Notes: a model not told the origin generated them from the letters alone. A stretch of 64,000 nt of DNA from an uncultured Candidatus Saccharibacteria bacterium (GCA_964577565.1 CAZNZL010000001.1:206566-270565); one strand, 5' to 3'; positions 67-35,717 are shown, counted from the stretch's first letter. Made by a program: numbers and translations.

Positions 67-522
67 TTACTTCTTCTCCTTCTTATCGTCTTTTTTAGCG
101 GTTTTCTTCTCATCTTGCTTGTCAGTTTTAGCAGATTTATCTTCAGCTTCACCGAAAATATTAATGCTACTACCTTCTGCTAAGCGTACATAAGCTTTCT
201 TGGCTTTTGCACGCACACCAGCTACTGGTCGGTTCCGCTTTTGGTAAGACTTTTTGACTTTACCCTTTACTACTACAACTTTTACGTCTTGCACGGTAAC
301 GCCAAATTGTTCTTGAACAGCAGCAGTAATCATCATTTTGTTAGCAGTTACCGGTACATCAAACACATAGGTGTTTAGGGCCAGGCTTGTGCCATAGGCT
401 TTTTCGCTCATGCGGGGCTTCAATACGACGGTTTTACTCATACCGTTAGAAATTACTTTAGAGGTAGATTTTCTATCAGTATTAGCTGTGTTCATTTTTG
501 CGCGATTTCTAACGGGACTCAT
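67..522 (-). CDS. rplW: 50S ribosomal protein L23, with an N-terminal extension and a Lys-rich C-terminal tail
   Basis: The core VVLKPRMSEKAY...VTANKMMI...FGVTV..V matches L23. The ATG at 522 overlaps the rplD stop (TAATG) and has GGGGGTGA 8 nt upstream. An alternative start at M28 (441) lacks an SD. Confidence 0.9.
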   Translation of the reverse strand: MSPVRNRAKMNTANTDRKSTSKVISNGMSKTVVLKPRMSEKAYGTSLALNTYVFDVPVTANKMMITAAVQEQFGVTVQDVKVVVVKGKVKKSYQKRNRPVAGVRAKAKKAYVRLAEGSSINIFGEAEDKSAKTDKQDEKKTAKKDDKKEKK

Positions 523-1154
523 TATTTGTCACCCCCAAGCCACTCGTTAATGATATCGAGTGATTTCTTAGTAATAATGATCGAATCAGCATTAAGAACA
601 TCATAAACATTCACATACTTTGCTTGCACTAAAATCACGTATGGAACGTTGCGGCTAGCTCGCACTAGCTCACTAGACTTGTTATCTACAACAACCAGCA
701 CGTTTCTGTTAGCACCAATTTTATTAAGCAAGGCCACAAATGGTTTAACTTTGCCGTCGTTGCTTTCAATACTGTCAATTACATTAATAGCTTTCGACTT
801 TAAGCTTAATGCTTGTCGAAGAGCAGTTTGTTTTGCTGCTGTGTTGAGCTTTCGACTGTAGTTTTCATTGCCGGTTGGGCCAAACACAATACCACCACCA
901 CGCCAAATTGGGTTTCGAGATGAACCAAAACGTGCACGGCCGGTACCTTTTTGGCGCCATGGCTTTCTACCGCCACCGCGAACTAAGCCACGAGTTTTAA
1001 CCACAGCATTATTTTCTCGGCCATTTGCTAGGTATGATAAATAGGCTTGCTTTAAGAGGTCGTGGCTCTCAACTGTTATGCCAAATACTTTTTTATCTAA
1101 CTTAACAGGAGTTGTTGCTTTAGTGCCTGATTTTGTATAGGTAGGAACGCTCAT
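522..1154 (-). CDS. rplD: 50S ribosomal protein L4
   Basis: 210 aa with an L4/L1e signature (KTRGLVRGGGRKPWRQKGTGRAR). GGAGGTG SD 8 nt upstream. S10 operon context. Confidence 0.97.
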   Translation of the reverse strand: MSVPTYTKSGTKATTPVKLDKKVFGITVESHDLLKQAYLSYLANGRENNAVVKTRGLVRGGGRKPWRQKGTGRARFGSSRNPIWRGGGIVFGPTGNENYSRKLNTAAKQTALRQALSLKSKAINVIDSIESNDGKVKPFVALLNKIGANRNVLVVVDNKSSELVRASRNVPYVILVQAKYVNVYDVLNADSIIITKKSLDIINEWLGGDK

Positions 1155-1258
1155 TATTTTTCACCTCCGGTTAACGAGACAAACCTACGGTTTTTCTCAT
1201 CGCGCAAGGTTTTGAATGAATCAAAACTTTGGCTGCTCTTTTCCCTTGAGAAATACAT
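1154..1258 (-). CDS. Intercistronic mini-ORF A (34 aa, MYFSREKSSQSFDSFKTLRDEKNRRFVSLTGGEK); novel small protein or relay ORF
   Basis: The ATG (1258-1256) overlaps the rplC stop as TAATG. The stop TAA (1156-1154) overlaps the rplD ATG as TAATG. The span is exactly 105 nt with no internal stop. The core 1171-1247 is repeated at 14020-14096 with 3 mismatches. It is too short for the supplied ORF track. Confidence 0.5.
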   Translation of the reverse strand: MYFSREKSSQSFDSFKTLRDEKNRRFVSLTGGEK

Positions 1259-1869
1259 TACTTAACCTCCTTCAGTAAAACTATGCCTTTTCGAGGCCCA
1301 GGCACAGCGCCGGCTATACCAATGATGTTTAGCTCGGTATCAACAAGCGCAACCTTAAGGTTTTTAACCGTTACACGCTCGTGACCCATTTGGCCGGCCA
1401 TTTTCTTACCCTTAAAAATCTTTTGTGGGTACATAGAACCAATTGAACCAGGGCGTCGATAACTGCGGCCACCATGTGTTTTACGGCCACGATGAAAGTT
1501 ATGGCGCTTAATAGTACCGGCAAAACCTTTACCTTTGCTTGTTCCGGTTACAGATACAACATCTCCAACAACAAAAGAATCGGCTGAAACTGATTCGCCG
1601 ATCTTCATATCTTCACTTATTTCGTCAATGCGGAATTCACGCATAATCTTTGGTGTTGTATTGGCTTGCTTTACGTGGCCCGCTACTGACTTGCTGAGCT
1701 TTTTACCATCTTCAAAGCCAAGCTGTACGGCCGTATAGCCGTCGCTCTCAACGTCTTTTACTTGCGTAATAACGTTAGGACTAGCGGAAAGCAAGGTAAT
1801 AGCTTGAACCGTACCGTCTTCAGAGATGGTACTTGTCATGCCTACCTTTCGTGTGATTAGAGCTTTCAT
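1258..1869 (-). CDS. rplC: 50S ribosomal protein L3
   Basis: 203 aa. MKALITRKVGMT...FKGKKMAGQMG is typical L3. AAAGGAGAA SD upstream. Confidence 0.97.
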   Translation of the reverse strand: MKALITRKVGMTSTISEDGTVQAITLLSASPNVITQVKDVESDGYTAVQLGFEDGKKLSKSVAGHVKQANTTPKIMREFRIDEISEDMKIGESVSADSFVVGDVVSVTGTSKGKGFAGTIKRHNFHRGRKTHGGRSYRRPGSIGSMYPQKIFKGKKMAGQMGHERVTVKNLKVALVDTELNIIGIAGAVPGPRKGIVLLKEVK

Positions 1870-10187: not shown

Positions 10188-13100
10188 TTAGGCGTCAACT
10201 TCAACCTCTTGATCTTCTTTCTTCTTGGCATAGGCATTATATCCTGTACCTACCGGAATCATACGGCCCAAGATAACATTTTCTTTCAAACCATACAGAT
10301 GATCGACCTTGCCACTGGTTGCCGCGCTAATGAGTACACGGGTTGTGTCCTGAAAGCTCGCAGCACTCAAGAACGATTCGGTTGAAAGCGAAGCTTTAGT
10401 AATACCAAGTAGTAATTGGTTGTACTGAATCTGCTCTTTGCCAACTTTAGCCAATTTTTCGTTTTCTTCTTGGACGGCAATTTTACTGACAATATCGCCG
10501 GTAATGAAGTCGCTGTCACCGGCGTCTTCAATTTGTACGCGAGAAAACATTTGTCGCACAATAATTTCAAGGTGCTTATCGGCAATATTTTGGCCCTGGC
10601 TGGCAAAAATCTTCAAGATTTCGTTCATGATGTAGCGCTGTGTAGCCTCTACACCTTGCAGACGCATTAACTCGTGAAGGTTGATTGAACCGTTTGTCAG
10701 GCGTTGTCCGGCAACAACCTCATCGCCATCTTTAACCTGCAACTGCTTGTAACCAGGGATCTCATAGCGCACGACACTTTGCTTGCTTGGCGTAATGAAG
10801 ATTGATCTCTTGGTAACCTTAACTTTGCCGGCCACCGGTGCAATGAGCGGGTTCGCGCCTTCTTCTTCAGACGCCATAACATCGCCAATGTTAACATTTG
10901 AACCGTTTTTGATCTCTACCTTGCGTCCGTTCAGCGGGTATTCAACTGACGCGTCATCTTTAGCGGTAATTTCAACGATATAGTGGTCGCCTTCTTCCCA
11001 GGTTTTTACGACACCAGAAATGTCGGCTAGGAACGCCTGGCCTTTAGGTGTACGTACCTCAAACAGCTCTTCAACTCGAGGTAAACCGGTCGTAATGTCT
11101 TCACCAGCTACACCACCCGAGTGGAAGGTTCTGAGTGTCAACTGCGTACCTGGTTCGCCAATACTCTGAGCGGCAATAACTCCAACGGGGTGGTATTTTG
11201 CAACGATATCACCGGTGGCAGGGTCAAGGCCGTAGCTTTCGCGACTTATACCGCGCACACTGCTACAACTTAAGACACTCATAATGCGCACTGTATCGAT
11301 GTTTTTATCGCTATCGATAGCAAGGGCAACTTCTGGGCTAATCAGCTCGCCAGCTTTAACATGACCCTTAACAGCTTCTGCTGTAAAGCGGCCTTCAAGC
11401 CGAGAAGCAAAGGTAACGCCAATTTCTTCAGAGTCGGCACGGTAAATTGCAAAGCCTGGGTCTTCACACTCCTCGTCAGTTGTGAAGACGTCTTGGCTAA
11501 CGTCTACCAAGCGACGCGTCAAGTAACCTGAGTCCGCGGTCTTAAGTGCCGTGTCAATCATACCCTTACGGGCGCCGCGTGTTGCGGTAAAGTATTCAAG
11601 CGGACTAAAACCATACTTATAGTTTGATTTCACCGGCAATTCAATAGTGCGTCCTGTTGCATCTGCAACTGGGCCCAACATGCCTACGGCTGTTTTTACC
11701 TGACCAATATTACCACGAGCACCAGAGACAACAGCGGTAGACATAGCGCTGTCTTCGTTAGCAAATTGCTCGCTTAAGGTTTTTTGCACTTCACTGTCAA
11801 CATCTTGCCATGTTTCAATGGTTAAACGGTATCGCTCTTCATCGGTAATGAAACCCTGTTCGTACTGGTCGCTGATGTTGGCAACGCGTTCTTCGCCTCG
11901 TTCTAATATTGCTGCCAGTTCGGGCAGATCGGTAAAGTCATCCATACCCAAGCTCAAGCCTGACTGGGTCGCATACTTAAAACCAATGTCTTTTAAGTCA
12001 TCGGCAATGTACGCGGTTTTATCTTGGCCATAGCGCTGATAAACCTTTGACATGACGTTTGACAGCTTCTTTTTTGTCATGGTTTCGTCTTGGAACGGAA
12101 AATCTTCAGGGAAGATCTCATTAAACAGCAACCTACCCAGCGTTGTATTGCGCATTTCGCCGCGGAACGGTACCATCACACGGCTTTGCAGCTGGATTTT
12201 ACCAGCATCATACGCCATGAGTGCTTCGGCTAGATTTACAAACGGCTGAGCCTCATTTGAAGCACCCATGCGTTCGTAGGTTAAGTAGTAGCAGCCTAGT
12301 ACTATATCCTGGTCAATATGAAGAATTGGTGATCCGTCAGCTGGTTTTAATAGGTTCTTGTTTGAGGCCATGATCTCTCGCGCTTCTGTTTGTGCTGCGT
12401 CTGATAGCGGTAAATGTACGGCCATTTGGTCGCCGTCAAAGTCAGCGTTAAAACCTTTACATACCAGTGGGTGAAGCTGAATAGCCTTACCTTCAATCAA
12501 AACAGGCTGAAAAGCCTGAACACTCAAGCGGTGTAATGATGGCGCTCGGTTTAGAAGGACATATTTACCTTTAATGACTTCATCTAGGGCGTCCCAAACG
12601 GCAGTTTCACCCGCCTCGATCATTCTAGTTGCTGACCTAATATTATGAGCAAATTCATTAGAAATGAGGTGGCCAATCACAAATGGCTTAAATAGCTCCA
12701 AGGCCATCATTTTTGGCAGACCACACTGGTTAATTTTAAGTTCAGGACCAGCAACGATCACCGAACGACCAGAGTAGTCTACGCGCTTACCAAGTAAGTT
12801 TTGACGAAAACGACCTTGCTTACCCTTAAGCATATCGCTGAGTGATTTTAGACGTCGGCGCTGGCCAGTAGCTGCCACTGCGCGCCCACTACGAGCATTG
12901 CCGTTATCAATTAAAGCATCAACAGCTTCTTGAAGCATGCGTTGCTCATTACGCCGAATAACCTCAGGGGCATTCAATTCAATGAGTTTCTTCAAGCGAT
13001 TATTACGGTTAATAACACGACGGTAAAGATCGTTTAGGTCTGAGGTTGCAAAACGGCCACCCGTTAATTGAACCATCGGTCGGAGATCAGGAGGAATTAC

Positions 13101-13997
13101 CGGCAAAACCGTTAAGCACATAGAATTAGGCTTAATATCTGCTTGCTCCATACTTTCAAGCAAGCGCAAGCGCTTCATTAGTTTCTTTTTGCGCTGACCT
13201 TTCGCTTCTTCAGCTTCTGCGGTGAGGTCTTTAATTAGCTTCTTCAGATCAATTTGATCAAGTAGGTCTTTTAAGGCTGTACCACCCATACCGACCTCGA
13301 TGATATCTGCTAATTCATCTGGTAAATTGTGGTAGTCACTTTCGCTAATAAGGTTAAGCTTAACCAATGAATCAACCTGAGCCTTAAAGGTTTCAAAGCT
13401 TTGCGTAATCTCTTCGAGCTCTTTGGTACGCATTTCTGCCAAAGCCTTAACGTTGGCATCGTCTTTTGCAGCCTCTGCTTCATAGCGAGCTTTGATTGCT
13501 TCTTGTGCGGCAGCAAATTCTGCCTCTTTGTCTGCTAGTAGCTGGTCTCGCTTAGCTTCATCAACAGACTTAATGATATAGCTCGCAAAGTAGGCGACCC
13601 GTTCTAGGTTTTTTACCGTTAAGCCTAGGAGTAACCCTACGGCTGATGGTGTACCACGAAGAAACCAAATATGCGCTACGGGGCTTGCTAAACTAATATG
13701 ACCCATGCGCTCACGTCGAACAATTGATTTGGTGACGATTTCGCCATTTTTATCAACTGCCGCCTCACGAGAACGAACACCTTTATATTTTGCGTCATGG
13801 GGGTTTATATCTTTGACGGGGCCAAAGATGCGCTCACAGAATAGACCATCACGCTCTGGTTTTTGTGTTCGATAGTTAATAGTCTCTGGTTTTGTGACCT
13901 CGCCATGTGACCAATCTAAAATGTCATCTGCACTTGCTACCGCAAGGCGAACAGCATCAAAGTCTGAGATGGTGGGGCCGCTAGAGTAACGTCGCAT
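10188..13997 (-). CDS. rpoC: DNA-directed RNA polymerase subunit beta'
   Basis: 1269 aa with the [12 protein letters not shown] catalytic motif. Confidence 0.99.
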
Positions 13998-14107
13998 TAG
14001 TTTACCTCGCTTTCGCTCATTAATGAGACAAGCCTACGGTTTTTCTCATCGCGCAAGGTTTTGAATGAATCAAAACTCTGGCTGCTCTTTTCCCTTTTGA
14101 AAACCAT
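13997..14107 (-). CDS. Intercistronic mini-ORF B (36 aa, MVFKREKSSQSFDSFKTLRDEKNRRLVSLMSESEVN); paralog of mini-ORF A
   Basis: The ATG (14107-14105) overlaps the rpoB stop as TAATG. The stop (13999-13997) overlaps the rpoC ATG as TAATG. The span is 111 nt, in frame. Of the 3 substitutions against copy A in the 77-nt core, 2 are synonymous (CAA/CAG, TCG/TCA) and 1 is F->L. Confidence 0.5.
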   Translation of the reverse strand: MVFKREKSSQSFDSFKTLRDEKNRRLVSLMSESEVN

Positions 14108-17100
14108 TATTTTGCCTCCTCTTCGTCTTCATCGTTAGTGTCGTCATCGTCATCAGCCGATGCAGCCGCTACGCCCGCAGGCATGTGGTCGTCAAGTTCA
14201 ATTAAATCAAACTCGTCGATACCTTCTGCCGCAGTAACGTCAATTTCTGACACTTCTGGTGCCGGTACATCAACTTCAGATTGGTTGACTGCTTCGTCTT
14301 TAATGTTTTCAGCTAGAATTGCTTCGGCATCAACGGTGGTTTCTGAAGCGATCAGATCCACCTTAAGCCCAAGGCCCTGGAGCTCTTTAACGAGCACGTT
14401 AAAGCTTTCGGGTACCTTAGGACCAACAATCTCAGTCCCTTTAATGATTGACTCATATGCCTTCGAACGGCCATATACATCGTCAGACTTAATTGTCAGC
14501 ATTTCTTGCAGCGTATTTGCTGCACCATATGCCTCGAGGGCCCATACTTCCATCTCACCAAAGCGCTGACCGCCATTTTGAGCTTTACCACCAAGTGGTT
14601 GCTGCGTCACCATAGTGTAGGGGCCAGTTGAACGAGCATGAATCTTATCAACGATCATGTGGTTGAGCTTGATCATATACATGCTGCCAACCGTAGTTCT
14701 CTCAGAAAACGGCTCGCCGGTACGACCATCAAACAGCTGCTGTTTACCATCTTCTGGAAAGCCAGCTTCTTTTAGTAAGTCTTGAATCTTGCTAATTGGG
14801 ACACCGTTGAATGATGGCGAGGCAACATGTATACCAAGGGCACGAGCCGCCATACCAAGGTGGGTTTCAAACAACTGCCCAATATTCATACGCGACGGCA
14901 CACCTAGCGGGTTCAGCAAAATATCAACAGGAGTGCCATCTTCCATGAACGGCATGTCTTCAACAGGCAATATACGTGCAATCACACCCTTGTTACCGTG
15001 TCGACCACCTAATTTGTCACCAACTGCAATTTTACGCATTTGGGCCACAAAGACCTGAATTTGCATAATCACGCCAGCTTTTAACTCATGGCCGTTTTCG
15101 CGGCTAAAGACCTTTACGCCCACAACCTTGCCGTGCTTGCCGTTACTCATACGCTGAGAGGTATCGCGAACATCTTTAGCTTTTTCGCCAAAAATGGCTC
15201 GCAGTAAGCGCTCTTCGCTCGAAAGCTCTTGCTCGCCTTTAGGGGTAATCTTACCTACTAAGATATCGCCAGGATGCACATCAGCGCCAATACGTACAAT
15301 ACCGTCTTCATCAAGATGACGCAGAGCTTCTTCGGACACGTTTGGAATGTCTCGTGTAACTATTTCAGGGCCGAGCTTAGTCTCGCGAACCTCAGTCATA
15401 TAATCAACGATATGAATCGATGTTAACGTATCGTCCTCAACTAAGCGGCGTGAAACAATAATAGCGTCCTCAAAGTTGTAGCCCTTCCATGGCATGAACG
15501 CAGCTATAACATCTTTACCAAGTGCTAGTTCGCCGCCATCAATGGACATCCCTTCAATAAGAATATCGCCTGTCTTAACTTTATCGCCACTATTTACGAC
15601 AACCCTTTGGTTTATACATGAGCCTTCATTGCTGCGCACAAAGTGTTGCGGATAGTAATGCACCTTTCCAGCATTCTTGTACTTCACAATAACTTCAGAA
15701 GCGGTTGCTGATAAAACTTCACCGTCTTCTTCAGCCTGAACGAGCTGGCCGGTGTTTCGTGCCACTACCGATTCTAAGCCGGTTCCAACAATAGGCCGCG
15801 ATGGACTGATTAGAGGCACGGCCTGGCGTTGCTGGTTACTACCCATTAAGCTTCGGTACACGTAGTTCTTTTCAATAAACGGAATTAAACCAGCACTTGA
15901 ACCAATGATTTGCCGCTTTGAAGCATCAATATGAGTAATATCATCGGCGTCTACCTCACCTGAAATCAAACGATTTCGTGCCGAAACACGCTCGTTTACA
16001 AAGTAGCGTTCATCTGTCAATTCCTCGCTACCGCTTGCAATAACAGCTTGCTCTTCTTCAGCCGCATCGAGATACTCAACTTTTTTGGTAACCTTCGCTT
16101 TTACTGGCCAAGATTTTTGATTTTTAACCGAGGCCAGTTTTTTAACGTCAGCTGCTGTAATGGTTGAACCGGCCTTAACCAGTACCTTACCATTTTCGTC
16201 TTCAAGATTAACACGAGCTATGTGGCCTACAGCCTCTTTAGGCGTAACGGCATTTTGCACCTTAAGGTAGGGGGTTTCAATGAAACCATATTCATTAATT
16301 CGTGCATACATACCCAGGTTTAAAACCAAGCCAATATTAGCGCCTTCTGGCGTCTCTACGGCACATATGCGTCCGTAGTGCGTGGCATGGGCATCGCGAA
16401 CTTCAAAACCGGCACGCTCGCGACTTAACCCGCCAGGACCCATTGAACTTAGACGTCTTTTATGCGCCAATTCGCTCAAGGGGTTAATCTGATCCATAAA
16501 CTGAGAAAGCTGTGAGCTGGCAAAAAACTCACGTACTGCTGCCACAACAGGCCGCGCGTTAATGAGTTGTCCAGGTGTTACGGTCTCGATCTCGCTCATA
16601 CTCATTCTGTCTTTTGTGTTTCGCTCCATACGAAGTAAACCGATACGGAATTGGCGTTGTACGAGCTCACCAACCAACTTAACACGTCGATTAGCAAGGC
16701 TATCAATGTCGTCGGCTGGCTCTTGTGTATTATTGAGGCGAATAACCTCAGCCACAATAGCAACAAGATCGTCAATGCGCATTACACGGTTTTCAGCAGT
16801 GTTTGGCACATCAAGATTAAGGCGCTTATTGATTTTGTAACGCCCAACACGGCTAAAATCAAAGCGCTTAAAGTTATAGAACATGTTTTCAAGAAGTGAG
16901 CGTGCGTTATCAACGGTAGCTAAATCGCCCGGACGTAAGCGACGATAAACCTCAATTAGTGCCTCGTTGGTACCTTTAGCCGGATCTTTATCGAGGGTTG
17001 CTGTAATAAAGCTATCTTTTCCTTGATCTACGTGTGCAAAGCTTTCTTTAATCCTAGCCTCTGTGAGGCCTAACGCGCGTAGTAAGGTAGTAACAGGAAT

Positions 17101-17658
17101 TTTACGTTTGCGATCAATCTTAACGTATATTGCGCCATTGGCGGCGGTCTCAAATTCTAACCATGCACCACGGCCAGGAATAACCTTAGCGCCGTAAAGA
17201 TTGCGTCCACCATGGACATCGGCCGTAAAGAATACGCCGGCCGAGCGGATCAACTGGCTTACGACAACTCGCTCGGCACCGTTAATAACAAACGTACCAC
17301 GAGAAGTCATCCATGGATAATCACCCAAGTAAATCTCTTGTTCTTTAACTTCGCCAGTAACTTTGTTAGTCAAAATAACCGTTGCCTTTAGCGGAGCCTC
17401 AAACGAAACATTGTTTTCACGAGCCTCTGCTTCAGAGATTTTTGGCTCTTCAAAACGATAATCTTTAAAACTTAGTGATAATTTTGTACCGGTGTAATCA
17501 TCAATAGGACTAATTTCGGCTAACAATTCGCCGAGTCCCTCTTCAATAAACCACTGGAACGATTTGTTTTGATGATCTACAAGGTTTGGTAGATCTAAAA
17601 TATCATCTTTTTGTGTAAAGTACATGCGCTGCTGCGCAGATGTGGAAGCTTTTGCCAT
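14107..17658 (-). CDS. rpoB: DNA-directed RNA polymerase subunit beta (acidic C-terminal tail)
   Basis: 1183 aa with conserved beta-subunit blocks (GRHGNKGV, NPLGVPSRMN). It ends in a DDDDDTNDEDEEE tail. Confidence 0.99.
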   Translation of the reverse strand: MAKASTSAQQRMYFTQKDDILDLPNLVDHQNKSFQWFIEEGLGELLAEISPIDDYTGTKLSLSFKDYRFEEPKISEAEARENNVSFEAPLKATVILTNKVTGEVKEQEIYLGDYPWMTSRGTFVINGAERVVVSQLIRSAGVFFTADVHGGRNLYGAKVIPGRGAWLEFETAANGAIYVKIDRKRKIPVTTLLRALGLTEARIKESFAHVDQGKDSFITATLDKDPAKGTNEALIEVYRRLRPGDLATVDNARSLLENMFYNFKRFDFSRVGRYKINKRLNLDVPNTAENRVMRIDDLVAIVAEVIRLNNTQEPADDIDSLANRRVKLVGELVQRQFRIGLLRMERNTKDRMSMSEIETVTPGQLINARPVVAAVREFFASSQLSQFMDQINPLSELAHKRRLSSMGPGGLSRERAGFEVRDAHATHYGRICAVETPEGANIGLVLNLGMYARINEYGFIETPYLKVQNAVTPKEAVGHIARVNLEDENGKVLVKAGSTITAADVKKLASVKNQKSWPVKAKVTKKVEYLDAAEEEQAVIASGSEELTDERYFVNERVSARNRLISGEVDADDITHIDASKRQIIGSSAGLIPFIEKNYVYRSLMGSNQQRQAVPLISPSRPIVGTGLESVVARNTGQLVQAEEDGEVLSATASEVIVKYKNAGKVHYYPQHFVRSNEGSCINQRVVVNSGDKVKTGDILIEGMSIDGGELALGKDVIAAFMPWKGYNFEDAIIVSRRLVEDDTLTSIHIVDYMTEVRETKLGPEIVTRDIPNVSEEALRHLDEDGIVRIGADVHPGDILVGKITPKGEQELSSEERLLRAIFGEKAKDVRDTSQRMSNGKHGKVVGVKVFSRENGHELKAGVIMQIQVFVAQMRKIAVGDKLGGRHGNKGVIARILPVEDMPFMEDGTPVDILLNPLGVPSRMNIGQLFETHLGMAARALGIHVASPSFNGVPISKIQDLLKEAGFPEDGKQQLFDGRTGEPFSERTTVGSMYMIKLNHMIVDKIHARSTGPYTMVTQQPLGGKAQNGGQRFGEMEVWALEAYGAANTLQEMLTIKSDDVYGRSKAYESIIKGTEIVGPKVPESFNVLVKELQGLGLKVDLIASETTVDAEAILAENIKDEAVNQSEVDVPAPEVSEIDVTAAEGIDEFDLIELDDHMPAGVAAASADDDDDTNDEDEEEAK

Positions 17659-17895: not shown

Positions 17896-18489
17896 TTACG
17901 TTAATACCTTGTCAATAAGGCCATATTTTTTAGCTTCTTCGGCGCTCATCCAGAAATCACGCTCAACATCGGTTTCTATTCTTTTAATTGGCTGACCGGT
18001 GTTTTTTGCTAAAATTTGGTTAAGTAACTGCTTTAAACGCAACCCTTCTTTAAGGTCAATTTCCATATCGCTCACACGCCCTCGCGTACCGGCAGAAGGT
18101 TGGTGAATCATGACGGTTGCGTGCGGCAATAAGTAGCGTTTGCCCTTGGCACCCGAACTAAGCAGAAAGGCTGCAGCACTTGCCTGAACGCCAATACCAA
18201 CGGTTTGGACATCGCTTTTTACGTATTGCATGGTGTCATAGATTGCAAACGCATCGTAAACACTGCCACCAGGGCTGTTTATATAAAATTTAATGTCTTT
18301 TTTTGGGTCTTCATTTTCTAGAAATAACATTTGTGCTACCACTAAGTTAGCGGTATGCTCATTTACCTCGGTACCCAAAAAGATTATACGGTCTTTGAGT
18401 AAGCGCGAATATATATCAAACGCGCGCTCTACACGTCCCTCATTCTCAATAACCGTTGGAACTAGAACTGAATTTTTTGTATGTATCAT
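17896..18489 (-). CDS. clpP: ATP-dependent Clp protease proteolytic subunit
   Basis: Catalytic Ser ([10 protein letters not shown]), His (MIHQP) and Asp ([10 protein letters not shown]) contexts are present. The start is set at MIHTKN (18489), which has AAGGA upstream. The track's longer ORF would read through the CIRCE/promoter. Confidence 0.95.
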
Positions 18490-18524
18490 CTGTGCATCCT
18501 TATACGTTATAAATACATACCTTA

Positions 18525-18554
18525 AGTATAGCCAAATTAGCACTCGTCAGTCAA
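18525..18554 (-). promoter_or_regulatory. clpP promoter (TTGACT-N18-TATACT) overlapping CIRCE
   Basis: Reverse complement = TTGACTgacgagtgctaatttggcTATACT. The -35 box lies in the CIRCE spacer. Confidence 0.6.
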
Positions 18555-18563
18555 GAGTGCTAA
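18537..18563. promoter_or_regulatory. CIRCE operator (HrcA binding site), perfect consensus
   Basis: TTAGCACTC-gtcagtcaa-GAGTGCTAA matches TTAGCACTC-N9-GAGTGCTAA exactly. Confidence 0.85.
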
Positions 18564-18779
18564 TTTATTATGCTCTGCTTTTTCAAATGCAGCTAACAAA
18601 TCATACGCCTCTTCATTGCAACGAGCCTCAGCAATAACACCAATGAGAATTTCAAGAGAATGTCCTTGAGTTATAAGTGCCAAGCCAAGTGTCTCGACAT
18701 CATAACGTGTAATTACGTTATGTTCGGGGCGGTATCTGAAACTTGCTGTAGATGGTGTCTCATGAGCGTTTTCACTCAT
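18537..18779 (-). CDS. Hypothetical protein (80 aa) between tig and clpP; uncertain
   Basis: The ATG overlaps the tig stop (TAATG). The last 9 codons (KLALLTDEC*) are the CIRCE sequence itself. No recognisable domain. Confidence 0.35.
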
Positions 18780-33015: not shown

Positions 33016-35493
33016 CTATTCGTTGCTCACACTGTAGGCAAGATCTTTATTTTTTGTACCTACTTCAACTACGGTACCCTTGTCGTACATACCATTAATA
33101 AGCTCAACAGCAATATGATCCTCTAATGTGTCTTGTAGTAAGCGTCGCATTGGCCGTACGCCGTTTAATGCATCGTACCCATTTTTAAGAAGGTAGTTTT
33201 TAGCTGCAGGCGTCAGTCTAACGCTGACCCCTCGCTTAGTGAGACGTTGCTTAAGCTCATCAATTTGTAAATCCAGGATTCTAAGAATGTTTTGGCGTGT
33301 CAAAGCCCGGAATACAATAATTTGATCAATTCGGTTTAATAACTCTGGGCGCATCATTTTCTTAAGCTGATCAAGTACCTTGTCTTTATTGGCATCATGT
33401 AACTTGTTAAGATCGTTAAGATCCTCTTTATCAACGGCGCTAAACCCAAGGCTTACTTCTTTTTGGAGCCGTTCCGCACCAATATTACTGGTCATAATTA
33501 CAATAGTGTTCGTAAAATCAATTTTACGGCCCTTTGCATCCGTCAGCGTACCGTCTTCAAGAATCTGCAGCAACATATTAAAGACGTCTGGGTGGGCCTT
33601 CTCAATCTCGTCAAACAACACCACACTGTACGGCTGGCGTCGTATTTTATCGGTCAGCTGGCCGCCATCATCATAACCCACATAACCAGCCGGCGCACCA
33701 ACAAGACGCGCAACATTATGATGTTCACCGAACTCACTCATATCTATTTTTACAAGTGATTCTTCAGACCCAAAAAACTCTCGTGACAATACTCGTGCCA
33801 GTTCGGTTTTACCCACCCCTGTCGGACCTAAGAAAATGAATGAACCAATCGGCCGCTTAGGACTACTAACGCCCGAACGGTTACGGCGAACAGCCCGCGC
33901 CACAGCGTGAACTGCTTCATCTTGCCCAATAACGTATTTGCCAAGATTCTTCTCTAAGTTAAGCAGGTATTTTGCCTCTGATCTGATGACTTTTTGTACG
34001 GGTACACCGGTTGTTCGCGCAACAATTTCAGCTACGTCGTCGCTTGTCATACTGATTTTTTTGGTCTCTTTTTCTGAGGCTTGTAACTTCTTTAAATCGG
34101 CATGAATCTGGCTAGCGCGTTGTTTATGCTGGGCCGCCTTTTCATAATCTTCACTATCAACGGCATCTTCAATGCGCGTATTAATGAGTTTTAGCTCATT
34201 CTTAAGTTTGCGCACTTCTGGCGGCGTGCGGCCCTTATCAATACGCAAATGAGCGGCTGTTTCGTCAAGAAGATCGATCGCCTTATCTGGCATAAATCGA
34301 TCATTAATGTAGCGGTCAGCCAAACCAACAATATCTTCTAATACTTCATCGGCCACGGTAACGCCATGAAAAGCCTCGTAATGCTTACGAAGACCTTTTA
34401 AGATTGCAACTGTCTCTGCTTTATTGGTGGGAGGTACTTGAATGGGCTGAAAACGGCGCTCTAAGGCACTATCCTTTTCGATATGCTTGGTATATTCAGC
34501 TGTAGTAGTAGCACCAATTACCTGAACTTTCCCGCGCGCTAAAGCGGGTTTAAGAATATTACCCGCATCGAGCGCTCCTTCGGCTGCGCCGGCTCCTACA
34601 ATTAAGTGCAATTCATCAATGAAGACAATGGTTTTTGTGTCGTTTTCAAGTTCGGTCATAACCTTCTTTAGACGCTCTTCAAACTCACCCCGATATTTTG
34701 TGCCTGCAATCATAGCGGTTAAGTCAAGCATAACAATACGCTTATCAAGCAGGCTGTCAGGAACATCTTCGCTGATAATACGCTGGGCTAAACCTTCAAC
34801 AATAGCAGTTTTTCCAACGCCGGGCTCGCCTATTAAGACAGGGTTATTTTTAGTACGGCGATTCAAAATGGTTACCATTCGCCTAATTTGGGCATCGCGG
34901 CCAACCACTGGATCAAGCTTAGCGTCACGTGCAGCTTGTGTTAAATCGGTACCAAAAAAATCAAGAGCCGTTTTACGACGTGGTTTTTTACGAGCAGTGC
35001 CCGAACCGTTGCTTGACCCCTCTTCGTATTGCTGACGATTAAGAAACTGCTCTAATTCGTTCATAAGGCCATCTACATTTATCTTCATATCACGCAGCAA
35101 AACAGTTGCGCGGGCATTTTTTTGGCTCAGTATGCTGTACAGAATATGCTCAGTACCACAAAATTCTTGATTATAATCTTGTGCAATATCATAGGCCATT
35201 TTAAGCGTTAATTTGGCGGTTTCACTCAAGCCCTTTGCACCCATATTAATCACCAATGTCTTTGGCGTTAAATTAAGCGCCAGGCGAGCTCGGTCAAGCG
35301 TAACGCCAGCGTCTTGAAGTAATTTTGCGCCCATTGAAGATTCTTGAGCCAACACACCCAAAAGCAGGTGCTCAGTACCAACATAGGGGCTACCAGCTGC
35401 ACGTGCAATACCATCTGCGTGGCGCAAGCTTTGAAGCCCGTTCTCTGTAAGATGATTGATAAATTCTTGAAATTCTGATGAGTTTGGTGGCAT
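33016..35493 (-). CDS. clpC: ATP-dependent Clp protease ATP-binding subunit ClpC
   Basis: 825 aa with duplicated Clp_N repeats, two AAA+ modules ([16 protein letters not shown]) and a short UVR-type linker. Confidence 0.93.
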
Positions 35494-35508: not shown

Positions 35509-35627
35509 TTAATAAGACAAACCTAGGGGTTTTTCTCATCGCGCCAGGCAAAAAGTATGATACTGTACCCCTCAAAATTTCATTTTGTGGGGACCCCAGT
35601 TTTTGCTTGGGCTGCTCTTTTCCCTCC
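35509..35627 (-). repeat. Third copy (C) of the mini-ORF/RNA element, in the clpC 5' UTR; non-coding, with an expanded central hairpin
   Basis: The gene strand keeps GGGAAAAGAGCAGCC and GCGCGAUGAGAAAAACC-loop-GGUUUGUCU. The central hairpin is about 40 nt longer, and the A/B reading frame is broken by stops. Confidence 0.6.
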
Positions 35628-35661: not shown

Positions 35662-35691
35662 AGTATAGCGAAATTAGCACTCGTCAGTCAA
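35662..35691 (-). promoter_or_regulatory. clpC promoter (TTGACT-N18-TATACT) overlapping CIRCE
   Basis: Reverse complement = TTGACTgacgagtgctaatttcgcTATACT. Near-identical to the clpP cassette. Confidence 0.6.
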
Positions 35692-35700
35692 GAGTGCTAA
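35674..35700. promoter_or_regulatory. CIRCE operator (HrcA binding site), perfect consensus
   Basis: TTAGCACTC-gtcagtcaa-GAGTGCTAA, identical to the clpP copy. Confidence 0.85.
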
Positions 35701-35717
35701 TTAATTACCGTTGTTGG

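Follow-up and report, generated by a model that had tools for sequence, protein, structure and literature searches.

A 36-codon open reading frame (ORF) fills the spacer between rpoB and rpoC in a 64,000-nucleotide (nt) stretch of DNA from an uncultured Candidatus Saccharibacteria bacterium (GCA_964577565.1 CAZNZL010000001.1:206566-270565), the whole of which we call the window. We judge it likely, with a probability of about 0.75, that this mini-ORF is an insertion of a structured repeat of Saccharibacteria which has been kept in frame for the passage of ribosomes, and that its peptide is a by-product. The initial annotation had interpreted it as one of two paralogous, conserved micropeptide genes; of this interpretation, the maintained frame and the very probable translation stood in our analysis, while the conserved micropeptide gene did not.

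The ORF, hereafter bridge ORF B, and the parts of the element that it contains (copy B, with an unpaired 5′ block and the hairpins P1 and P2) are placed as follows, all on the minus strand:

14107-17658, minus strand: rpoB (Pfam RNA_pol_Rpb2 domains)
14105-14119, minus strand: left junction copy GGAGGCAAAATAATG, with the Shine-Dalgarno sequence in the last rpoB codons and the overlap of rpoB stop and bridge ORF start
13997-14107, minus strand: bridge ORF B, which occupies the rpoB|rpoC spacer with 36 codons and a stop (ORF reading)
14023-14096, minus strand: element core copy B (covariance-model scores 85.1 and 84.3 bits)
14094-14081, minus strand: unpaired 5′ block GGGAAAAGAGCAGC of copy B (structure prediction)
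approximately 14082-14051, minus strand: P1 of copy B (structure prediction)
14049-14023, minus strand: P2 of copy B (structure prediction)
13995-14010, minus strand: right junction copy GCGAGGTAAACTAATG, with the rpoC Shine-Dalgarno sequence and the overlap of bridge ORF stop and rpoC start
10188-13997, minus strand: rpoC (Pfam RNA_pol_Rpb1 domains)

As initially annotated, the 36-codon ORF at 13997-14107 on the minus strand has TAATG at both ends. Precisely, its ATG (14107-14105) overlaps the rpoB stop in the TAATG at 14109-14105, and its TAA (13999-13997) overlaps the rpoC ATG (13997-13995). The 111 nt consist of a lead of 14, a P1 segment of 43, a P2 segment of 26 and a tail of 28 nt, and the peptide of 36 amino acids is MVFKREKSSQSFDSFKTLRDEKNRRLVSLMSESEVN. 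The right junction copy is a diverged duplicate of the left one, with 15 of 20 positions matching (GAAGAGGAGGCAAAATAATG versus GAAAGCGAGGTAAACTAATG).

The twin that had been reported between the ribosomal protein genes L3 and L4 with the same architecture is indeed present (1154-1258, 34 amino acids), and there is a third copy (35512-35626) which the initial annotation had missed. An exhaustive scan of the window with the element model gave exactly these three copies (A, B and C). The features relative to copies A and C are:

1258-1869, minus strand: L3 (Pfam)
1154-1258, minus strand: bridge ORF A, which occupies the L3|L4 spacer with 34 codons, with the left TAATG at 1260-1256 and the right TAATG at 1156-1152
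1174-1247, minus strand: element core copy A (covariance-model scores 86.4 and 87.7 bits)
1170-1162, minus strand: 3′ module of copy A, CCGGAGGTG, which supplies the L4 Shine-Dalgarno sequence
522-1154, minus strand: L4 (Pfam)
35512-35626, minus strand: element copy C, part of the untranslated 5′ leader that precedes a ClpB/ClpC-type ATPase gene (nhmmer, covariance models)
33016-35493, minus strand: the ClpB/ClpC-type ATPase gene

Copies A and B have in common a 77-nt core with three differences (CAA/CAG, TTT/CTT and TCG/TCA), leads of equal length and a tail that is 6 nt longer in B, in agreement with what had been described. The core identity is 74/77, and none of 100 shuffles gave a match of comparable quality. 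Two of the three substitutions are structure-neutral wobble changes, from A-U to G.U in P1 and from U-A to U.G in P2, and the three taken together do not discriminate between a peptide and a structural reading. The CCGGAGG module of copy A was found again 3′ of the element in other genomes. A Pfam search of both mini-ORFs gave no match, and exact look-ups of the bridge ORF B peptide and of the window's L3 protein returned no record.

Copy C was detected by nhmmer (E = 1e-9) and by the covariance models (70 bits). It keeps GGGAAAAGAGCAGCC at the 5′ end and GCGCGATGAGAAAAACC...GGTTTGTCT at the 3′ end, so that the 5′ block and P2 are retained, and its centre is a different, longer hairpin (an enlarged central domain). 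In the frame of A and B it runs into a TGA and is non-coding. Conserved ends around a replaceable stem argue for a structured element and not for a peptide. Separately, copy C (35540-35600) and the copy of another locus, L055 (2405-2521), have in common a nested insert, GGGGTCCCCACAAAAT...ATTTTGAGGGGTA, which may be a second small hairpin module.

We scanned one genome per species with an exact-match DNA pattern derived from P2 (the 3′ block), and at least 116 stretches of species genomes were matched. Among the 116 stretches listed, 108 were labelled as Saccharibacteria, Saccharimonadia or TM7, four as Patescibacteria, three as "bacterium" and one as Verrucomicrobiia, the latter being probably a binning error. 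The 120 copies analysed below were selected with the same pattern, and their genomic contexts were assigned by a simple ORF rule (ORFs of at least 70 codons) and without a gene finder. Labels such as L007 and L117 denote the loci compared.

The core of the element is about 75 nt long and consists of the unpaired block, P1, a short linker and P2. The unpaired 5′ block, (A)GGGAAAAGAGCAGC, is 14 nt long and nearly invariant. P1 is variable in length as well as in sequence and usually has an A.C mismatch close to the foot of the stem; it ranges from copies in which it is reduced to GCGAAGC to others in which it is expanded to two hairpins. P2 has the form AUGAGAAAAACC-loop-GGUUUGUCUCAU, its loop counting 3-6 nt. 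In mRNA contexts, many copies are followed by a mini-hairpin or Shine-Dalgarno module (AGGCGAAGCC, AGCGAAGCG or AGCCGGAGGCG), 5-9 nt after which lies the start codon.

Both hairpins covary. P1 was recovered by RNAalifold with abundant compensatory changes. The covariation statistics were computed on the alignment of covariance model R2, which comprises 119 hits: 95.6% of the cells were paired, double changes were present in 22 of the 23 pairs and the covariation score was 0.293, against 0.091 for shuffles (0 of 500 reached the observed value) and at most 0.055 for slid controls. Since the search pattern fixed P2 in most copies, the support for P2 comes from compensatory changes in a few copies that the model alone detected (L065, L063, L024 and L027). 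G.U and U.G pairs exceeded A.C and C.A pairs (48 versus 17, p = 1.5e-4, these being counts of sequences and not independent events), which indicates that the strand that folds is the sense strand, co-oriented with the downstream genes. Compensatory pairs on one strand, as expected of a structured RNA, were therefore found, and the former statement that the pattern of substitutions was hard to reconcile with a purely structural repeat is not supported: the element is such a repeat. The z-scores of single-sequence folding were unremarkable (from -0.75 to -2.0 on the sense strand) and are uninformative beside the covariation.

Two resemblances of the element to known motifs were considered and discarded. 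GAUGAG and GAAAAG recall a hammerhead, but the CUGAUGA core is absent, and the element's CGAUGAG is part of the P2 stem. A likeness to boxA (UGCUCUUU) is seen in the 5′ block when it is read as its reverse complement; this is the sense that is not transcribed, and we regard the likeness as a coincidence. The complement of the 5′ block, sought in all the DNA compared, gave only scattered matches with one or two mismatches.

With regard to genomic contexts, 35 of the 120 copies are in the leaders of tRNAs of 13 identities, where they end 5-13 nt before the mature 5′ end; the orientation bias is 35:1 for sense, the exception being one further copy upstream of an antisense tRNA. One copy lies 14 nt upstream of 16S (L072) and another 14 nt upstream of 5S (L082). 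Copies located between two ORFs of the same strand, which we call intercistronic, amount to 27 of 120, and the others were either assigned to untranslated regions (5′ or 3′) or left unclassified. When a copy is flanked by ORFs of one strand, it is more often in sense than in antisense orientation (33 versus 9). In about three quarters of the copies (tRNA, rRNA and mRNA leaders) the element is non-coding.

Some further observations concern these contexts. Putative tRNA promoters located 16-38 nt upstream of the element (for example in L011, L014, L017, L040, L046, L068, L070, L071 and L093) share an extended -10, TGnTAnAAT, and a conserved C-rich CTGTT motif follows it after a few bases in the tRNA-leader loci. 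The copy of L114 (315-389) is antisense and directly abuts the 3′ end of 23S, and that of L002 (504-579), also antisense, is at a break in the 23S rRNA match (model position 2049). Antisense copies are found at gene 5′ ends in L053 (a msrA-like gene), L030 and L042 (tpiA), with a duplication of 30-44 nt whose first base is the A of the ATG of the gene. In L053 the distal copy looks leaderless (TAAAAT-N6-ATG), and the functional copy gets its Shine-Dalgarno sequence, GGAGGT, from the variable spacer beside the 5′ block of the element.

The test over many copies that the initial annotation had proposed was run, and it was positive for a kept frame. An ATG-started ORF in the frame that encodes REKSS was present in 20/27 intercistronic copies versus 6/93 other copies (Fisher p = 4.5e-12), and the stop in this frame was between -4 and +8 nt from the downstream start in 20/27 cases, versus 1/54 for the two control frames. 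The 20 bridge ORFs are all 105-123 nt long, with stop-to-start offsets from -1 to +6 nt. Lengths of lead, P1, P2 loop and tail compensate one another modulo 3, the combinations being (2,1,0,0) in 12 cases, (2,1,2,1) in seven and (2,0,0,1) in one. Similarly, the P1 segment belongs to one length class modulo 3 in 22/27 intercistronic copies versus 34/93 elsewhere (p = 5e-5). A Shine-Dalgarno-like sequence lies 5-10 nt upstream of the ATG in 19 of the 20 bridge ORFs. We thus found a start codon, a Shine-Dalgarno sequence and a maintained open frame, as for a micropeptide gene, and also overlaps of stop and start with both neighbours, as for a coupled cistron (copies A and B have TAATG on either side). 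These data on frame and Shine-Dalgarno sequences indicate that the bridge ORF is very probably translated.

What is kept, though, is a path and not a product: a stop-free passage between the genes is favoured, by selection or by a filter acting at insertion. The peptide after the P2 loop reads ...RDEKNRRFVS when the loop is of 3 nt and ...RDEKNRQVCL when it is of 4 nt, the same stem being read one base later, and in L010 the 3′ block yields AMRKT rather than RDEKN. The nucleotides encoding the invariant residues EKSS and DEKNR are equally invariant in the untranslated tRNA leaders, and the variable residues map to the covarying stem; constraint on amino acids rather than on nucleotides was not found, and about 93 of the 120 copies are not ORFs in the frame in question. 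Moreover, inserts unrelated to the element behave in the same way. The 46-nt and approximately 135-nt inserts at L3|L4 in L032 and L090, respectively, and the 55-nt spacer at rpoB|rpoC in L123 are all ORFs that run from the upstream TAATG to the downstream ATG or to 2 nt before it. A C-terminal half read in two frames and unrelated inserts forming bridge ORFs at the same junctions indicate selection on the translation of the spacer and not on the peptide, so that the earlier claim of a peptide gene under purifying selection was not borne out. As a side observation, the L032 insert is flanked by a duplicated GGAGG(G)CCAAGTAATG.

The origin of the bridge ORFs is visible at orthologous junctions. 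The window's proteins are closest to those of Saccharibacteria genomes, in line with its origin: its L3 is 78% identical to that of L007, and the N-terminus of its RpoC is 93% identical, by tblastn, to that of L117. The L3|L4 junction is empty in L007, L021, L063, L113 and L025, where there is a single stop/start overlap (TAATG; TGATG in L021) and the Shine-Dalgarno sequence is within the last L3 codons. It is occupied by the element in the window, L018 and L010, and by the unrelated inserts in L032 and L090; in L018 the 21-nt junction CATTAAGGAGGCCAAGTAATG is duplicated perfectly on both sides. With respect to rpoB|rpoC, the element model found no copy in any of 80 metagenomic loci with a related RpoC N-terminus. 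We considered a junction as tight if the start was at most 7 nt from the rpoB stop, and in the closest relatives (78-93% identity, tblastn) 40 of the 41 junctions measured were tight (TAATG, TAAnATG). The closest of all, L117, has a single unoccupied junction identical to the window's left copy GGAGGCAAAATAATG. Independent insertions at rpoB|rpoC were found in L031 and L203, and L204 is occupied as well; in L203 and L204, the RpoC of which is 79% identical to the window's, the junction duplication matches in 19 of 20 positions.

More generally, flanking direct repeats of 15-50 nt exceeded the maximum of the null, that is the best score of a mismatched-flank control, in 13 of 118 copies. Several of these duplications are perfect (in L018, L069 and L043, among others). 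We therefore observed both presence and absence at orthologous sites and target duplication, as for mobile repeats in general, and the double TAATG of the bridge ORFs exists because the insertion duplicated a junction with a single TAATG. The duplications vary in length, and the ends of the insert are fuzzy and differ between copies. Duplications so long and variable, with insert ends that are not fixed, make a classical transposase unlikely; retro-type insertion or a template switch of replication, at highly transcribed sites, is no more than a candidate. Since the junctions resemble one another, it is also possible that the element is spread by recombination between junction sequences.

One site deserves a separate description. 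In L043 and L051, two species, the same site is occupied, each time with a perfect duplication of 48-50 nt, at the 3′ end of a gene whose C-terminus looks, by eye, like that of PcrA/UvrD. Past the duplication in L051, left and right copies disagree in the last four codons by synonymous changes alone, and the left version is similar to the native gene end of the other species, as if the insert had brought with it a flank of the donor site.

In the sequence of events that we propose, the element would land at a rpoB/rpoC overlap with a single TAATG, whose Shine-Dalgarno sequence is inside the last rpoB codons. The insertion would duplicate this junction, one copy of which would then end rpoB and start a new ORF, while the other would end the bridge ORF and start rpoC. 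The duplicated Shine-Dalgarno sequence and ATG, formerly used for rpoC, would now start the bridge ORF. Ribosomes that finish rpoB would re-initiate at the duplicated ATG, translate the element, melting its hairpins P1 and P2 on the way, and end translation at the start of rpoC, by which the translational coupling of rpoB and rpoC would be restored. Only insertions that are in frame and free of stops would persist, those breaking the relay being lost, and the peptide would be a by-product of an element acting at the RNA or DNA level.

Several points weigh against this explanation. Translation and coupling are themselves read from the sequence, and the 120-copy sample is limited by the selection with the P2 pattern and by the simple ORF rule used for contexts. 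Many intercistronic copies share the P1 base CCAGAG...CCCTG and the 3′ module AGCCGGAGGCG-N-TAATG, so that conservation of the frame could be in part inherited, if a subfamily spreads as a ready-made cassette. The cores of A and B are 96% alike and their flanks only about 75-85%, which suggests older insertions homogenised by gene conversion, a history that would fit better than simple recent transposition. Finally, P1 is paired at 95.7% in both translated and tRNA-leader copies, and hairpins that remain intact in translated copies make a role at the RNA level possible at rpoB|rpoC; intercistronic copies with intact stems are either young or satisfy both constraints.

That last point is also part of the case for an element that is primarily a functional cis-acting RNA before highly expressed genes (tRNAs, rRNAs, ribosomal-protein and RNA polymerase cistrons, clp), which at rpoB|rpoC would act on the mRNA and for which the ORF would be a secondary accommodation. 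Such an RNA could serve as a signal for 5′ processing or cleavage, stabilise the transcript, mediate processive antitermination or be the source of a small RNA derived from the leader. Consistent with it are the 14-nt unpaired block, invariant across the whole class while P1 covaries freely, the strong bias for the sense orientation, the excess of G.U over A.C pairs and the tight spacing to mature 5′ ends (5-13 nt for 35 tRNAs, 14 nt for 16S and 5S). We nevertheless regard it as unlikely. Close species differ in occupancy and 80/80 related rpoB|rpoC junctions are empty, and an occupancy so sporadic among close relatives implies that the element is dispensable there. In addition, long target duplications and fuzzy ends point to copy-and-paste spread, there is no evident terminator or other expression platform and no match to a Rfam family, and the 5′ block has no complementary partner among the sequences compared. 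A broader proposal, to which we give a tentative credence well short of even, is that of a new class of leader RNA modules, which would stand across Saccharibacteria before tRNAs, rRNAs and the cistrons of ribosomal proteins, RNA polymerase and clp, combining three properties: an activity at the RNA level, which would be 5′-end processing, transcript protection or modification of RNA polymerase; a copy-and-paste spread unlike that of a transposase, which would occur by retro-type insertion or replication template switching and leave duplications of 15-50 nt; and dual-coded intercistronic copies, which would be constrained both as hairpins and as translated relay ORFs.

A functional micropeptide family, with a basic product of about 36 amino acids acting on RNA polymerase or the ribosome under purifying selection, has in our opinion only a small chance of being the explanation. 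It would account for the kept frame, for the residues REKSS...RDEKNR conserved in 19 aligned peptides, for the numerous small-ORF clusters in public data described below, and for the location in ribosomal-protein and RNA polymerase operons with Shine-Dalgarno and ATG contexts. Against it, the nucleotides behind the conserved residues show the same conservation in about 93 untranslated copies, the covarying stem supplies the variable residues, the C-terminal part is read in two frames, with a third reading of the 3′ block in L010, unrelated inserts at the same junctions give bridge ORFs with unrelated peptides, and relatives carry the element at a given junction only sporadically. As for the idea that two unrelated spacers are alike and open merely by chance, all that speaks for it is the lack of stop codons in two of the three frames of the conserved 3′ block; cores identical at 74/77 positions, a match that shuffles did not produce, and hundreds of homologous copies had already refuted a chance similarity, and we give it practically no weight. 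It is thus the structured insertion, maintained as a translated path between rpoB and rpoC, that we retain.

In public protein data, a profile of 19 aligned bridge peptides gave 592 protein clusters at E ≤ 1. Among the 120 of these 592 that were listed, almost all were of 33-40 amino acids, without a Pfam domain and named, if at all, only as "hypothetical protein"; this sample is biased towards the copies that gene callers report as ORFs. Four widely seen clusters that we sampled were located at L29|S17, at L22|S3 (with another at L24|L5), at L23|L2 and at rpoB|rpoC. At the level of RNA, no Rfam family, ribosomal-protein leaders and ribozymes such as the hammerhead included, matched the window at gathering thresholds, and a permissive search (E ≤ 10) of copies B and C produced nothing above noise. 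The literature searched contained no relevant paper for the family's motif strings and, with regard to repeats or small ORFs of Saccharibacteria, no description of this element. The family is apparently undescribed and almost wholly restricted to Saccharibacteria. Independently of it, the ribosomal-protein operons of the Saccharibacteria loci L197-L202 contain several further unannotated ORFs of 45-116 amino acids without Pfam matches, located at L22|S3, L5|S14, L23|L2 and L2|S19, and interposed ORFs seem to be common in such operons.

The closest known analogues appear to be the Rickettsia palindromic elements (RPEs) and bacterial intergenic repeats in general. RPEs are structured repeats that have repeatedly been found inserted in frame and translated, with the frame of the host gene intact (PMC10969869). 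Like them, the present element is a short, structured, interspersed repeat of one lineage with reduced genomes and has copies translated in frame. RPEs, however, are about 150 bp long and fused inside protein-coding genes, whereas here the ORF is free-standing and coupled at both ends, most copies are non-coding leaders of tRNAs and rRNAs, and there is no sequence relationship. To our knowledge, long target duplications are not a feature of RPEs.

[quoted passage not shown] The present element resembles them in being small, non-autonomous, multi-copy, hairpin-forming and often co-transcribed in operons. Unlike them, it has neither terminal inverted repeats, the 5′ block GGGAAAAGAGCAGC not being the complement of the 3′ end, nor a short duplication of fixed length, since its duplications are of 15-50 nt and variable, with fuzzy ends. 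Its sequence is conserved across the whole class, beyond a single species or genus, and its orientation has a strong sense-strand bias. No autonomous partner with a transposase was noticed in the loci examined, in which no systematic search for one was made.

Translational coupling via overlapping stop and start codons (TAATG, ATGA) is established for ribosomal-protein and rpoBC operons. Both ends of the bridge ORF have exactly this arrangement, and so do the empty junctions with their single TAATG, but here an additional cistron, brought in by insertion, would pass the coupling on, and we know of no description of such a relay as a recurrent, maintained solution. The put sites of phage HK022, which consist of two adjacent leader hairpins of about 70 nt acting in cis for processive antitermination, bear a general likeness to the element (two hairpins, leader position, action in cis, about 70 nt); there is no sequence similarity, and put RNAs are not multi-copy mobile repeats.

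One observation in the window is unrelated to the element. An inverted repeat, TTAGCACTC-N9-GAGTGCTAA, is present in two copies that are 96% identical (18525-18570 and 35662-35707), both lying within a TTGACT-N18-TATACT that looks like a promoter. The first is upstream of clpP (17896-18543), the second of the ClpB/ClpC-type ATPase gene (33016-35493). We take the repeat to match the consensus of the CIRCE operator, bound by HrcA. The usual CIRCE targets are groE and dnaK, and neither clpP nor the ClpB/ClpC-type gene is among them.

With this analysis, what appeared to be an orphan micropeptide between the genes of the two largest RNA polymerase subunits becomes one case of a phenomenon shared by a whole family, and a structured element of Saccharibacteria that is abundant and apparently undescribed comes into view. 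It also advises caution, because conservation of the frame alone is insufficient for calling small ORFs. The invariant 14-nt block and the fixed position at tRNA and rRNA genes suggest a partner or an activity, and the long target duplications point to an unusual mechanism of insertion. Saccharibacteria are reported to be now cultivable and genetically manipulable (PMC10633639), so that these ideas can be put to the test. For reduced genomes in which neighbouring genes are coupled by stop/start overlaps, the finding means that unrelated inserts occupying such junctions take the form of in-frame relay ORFs.

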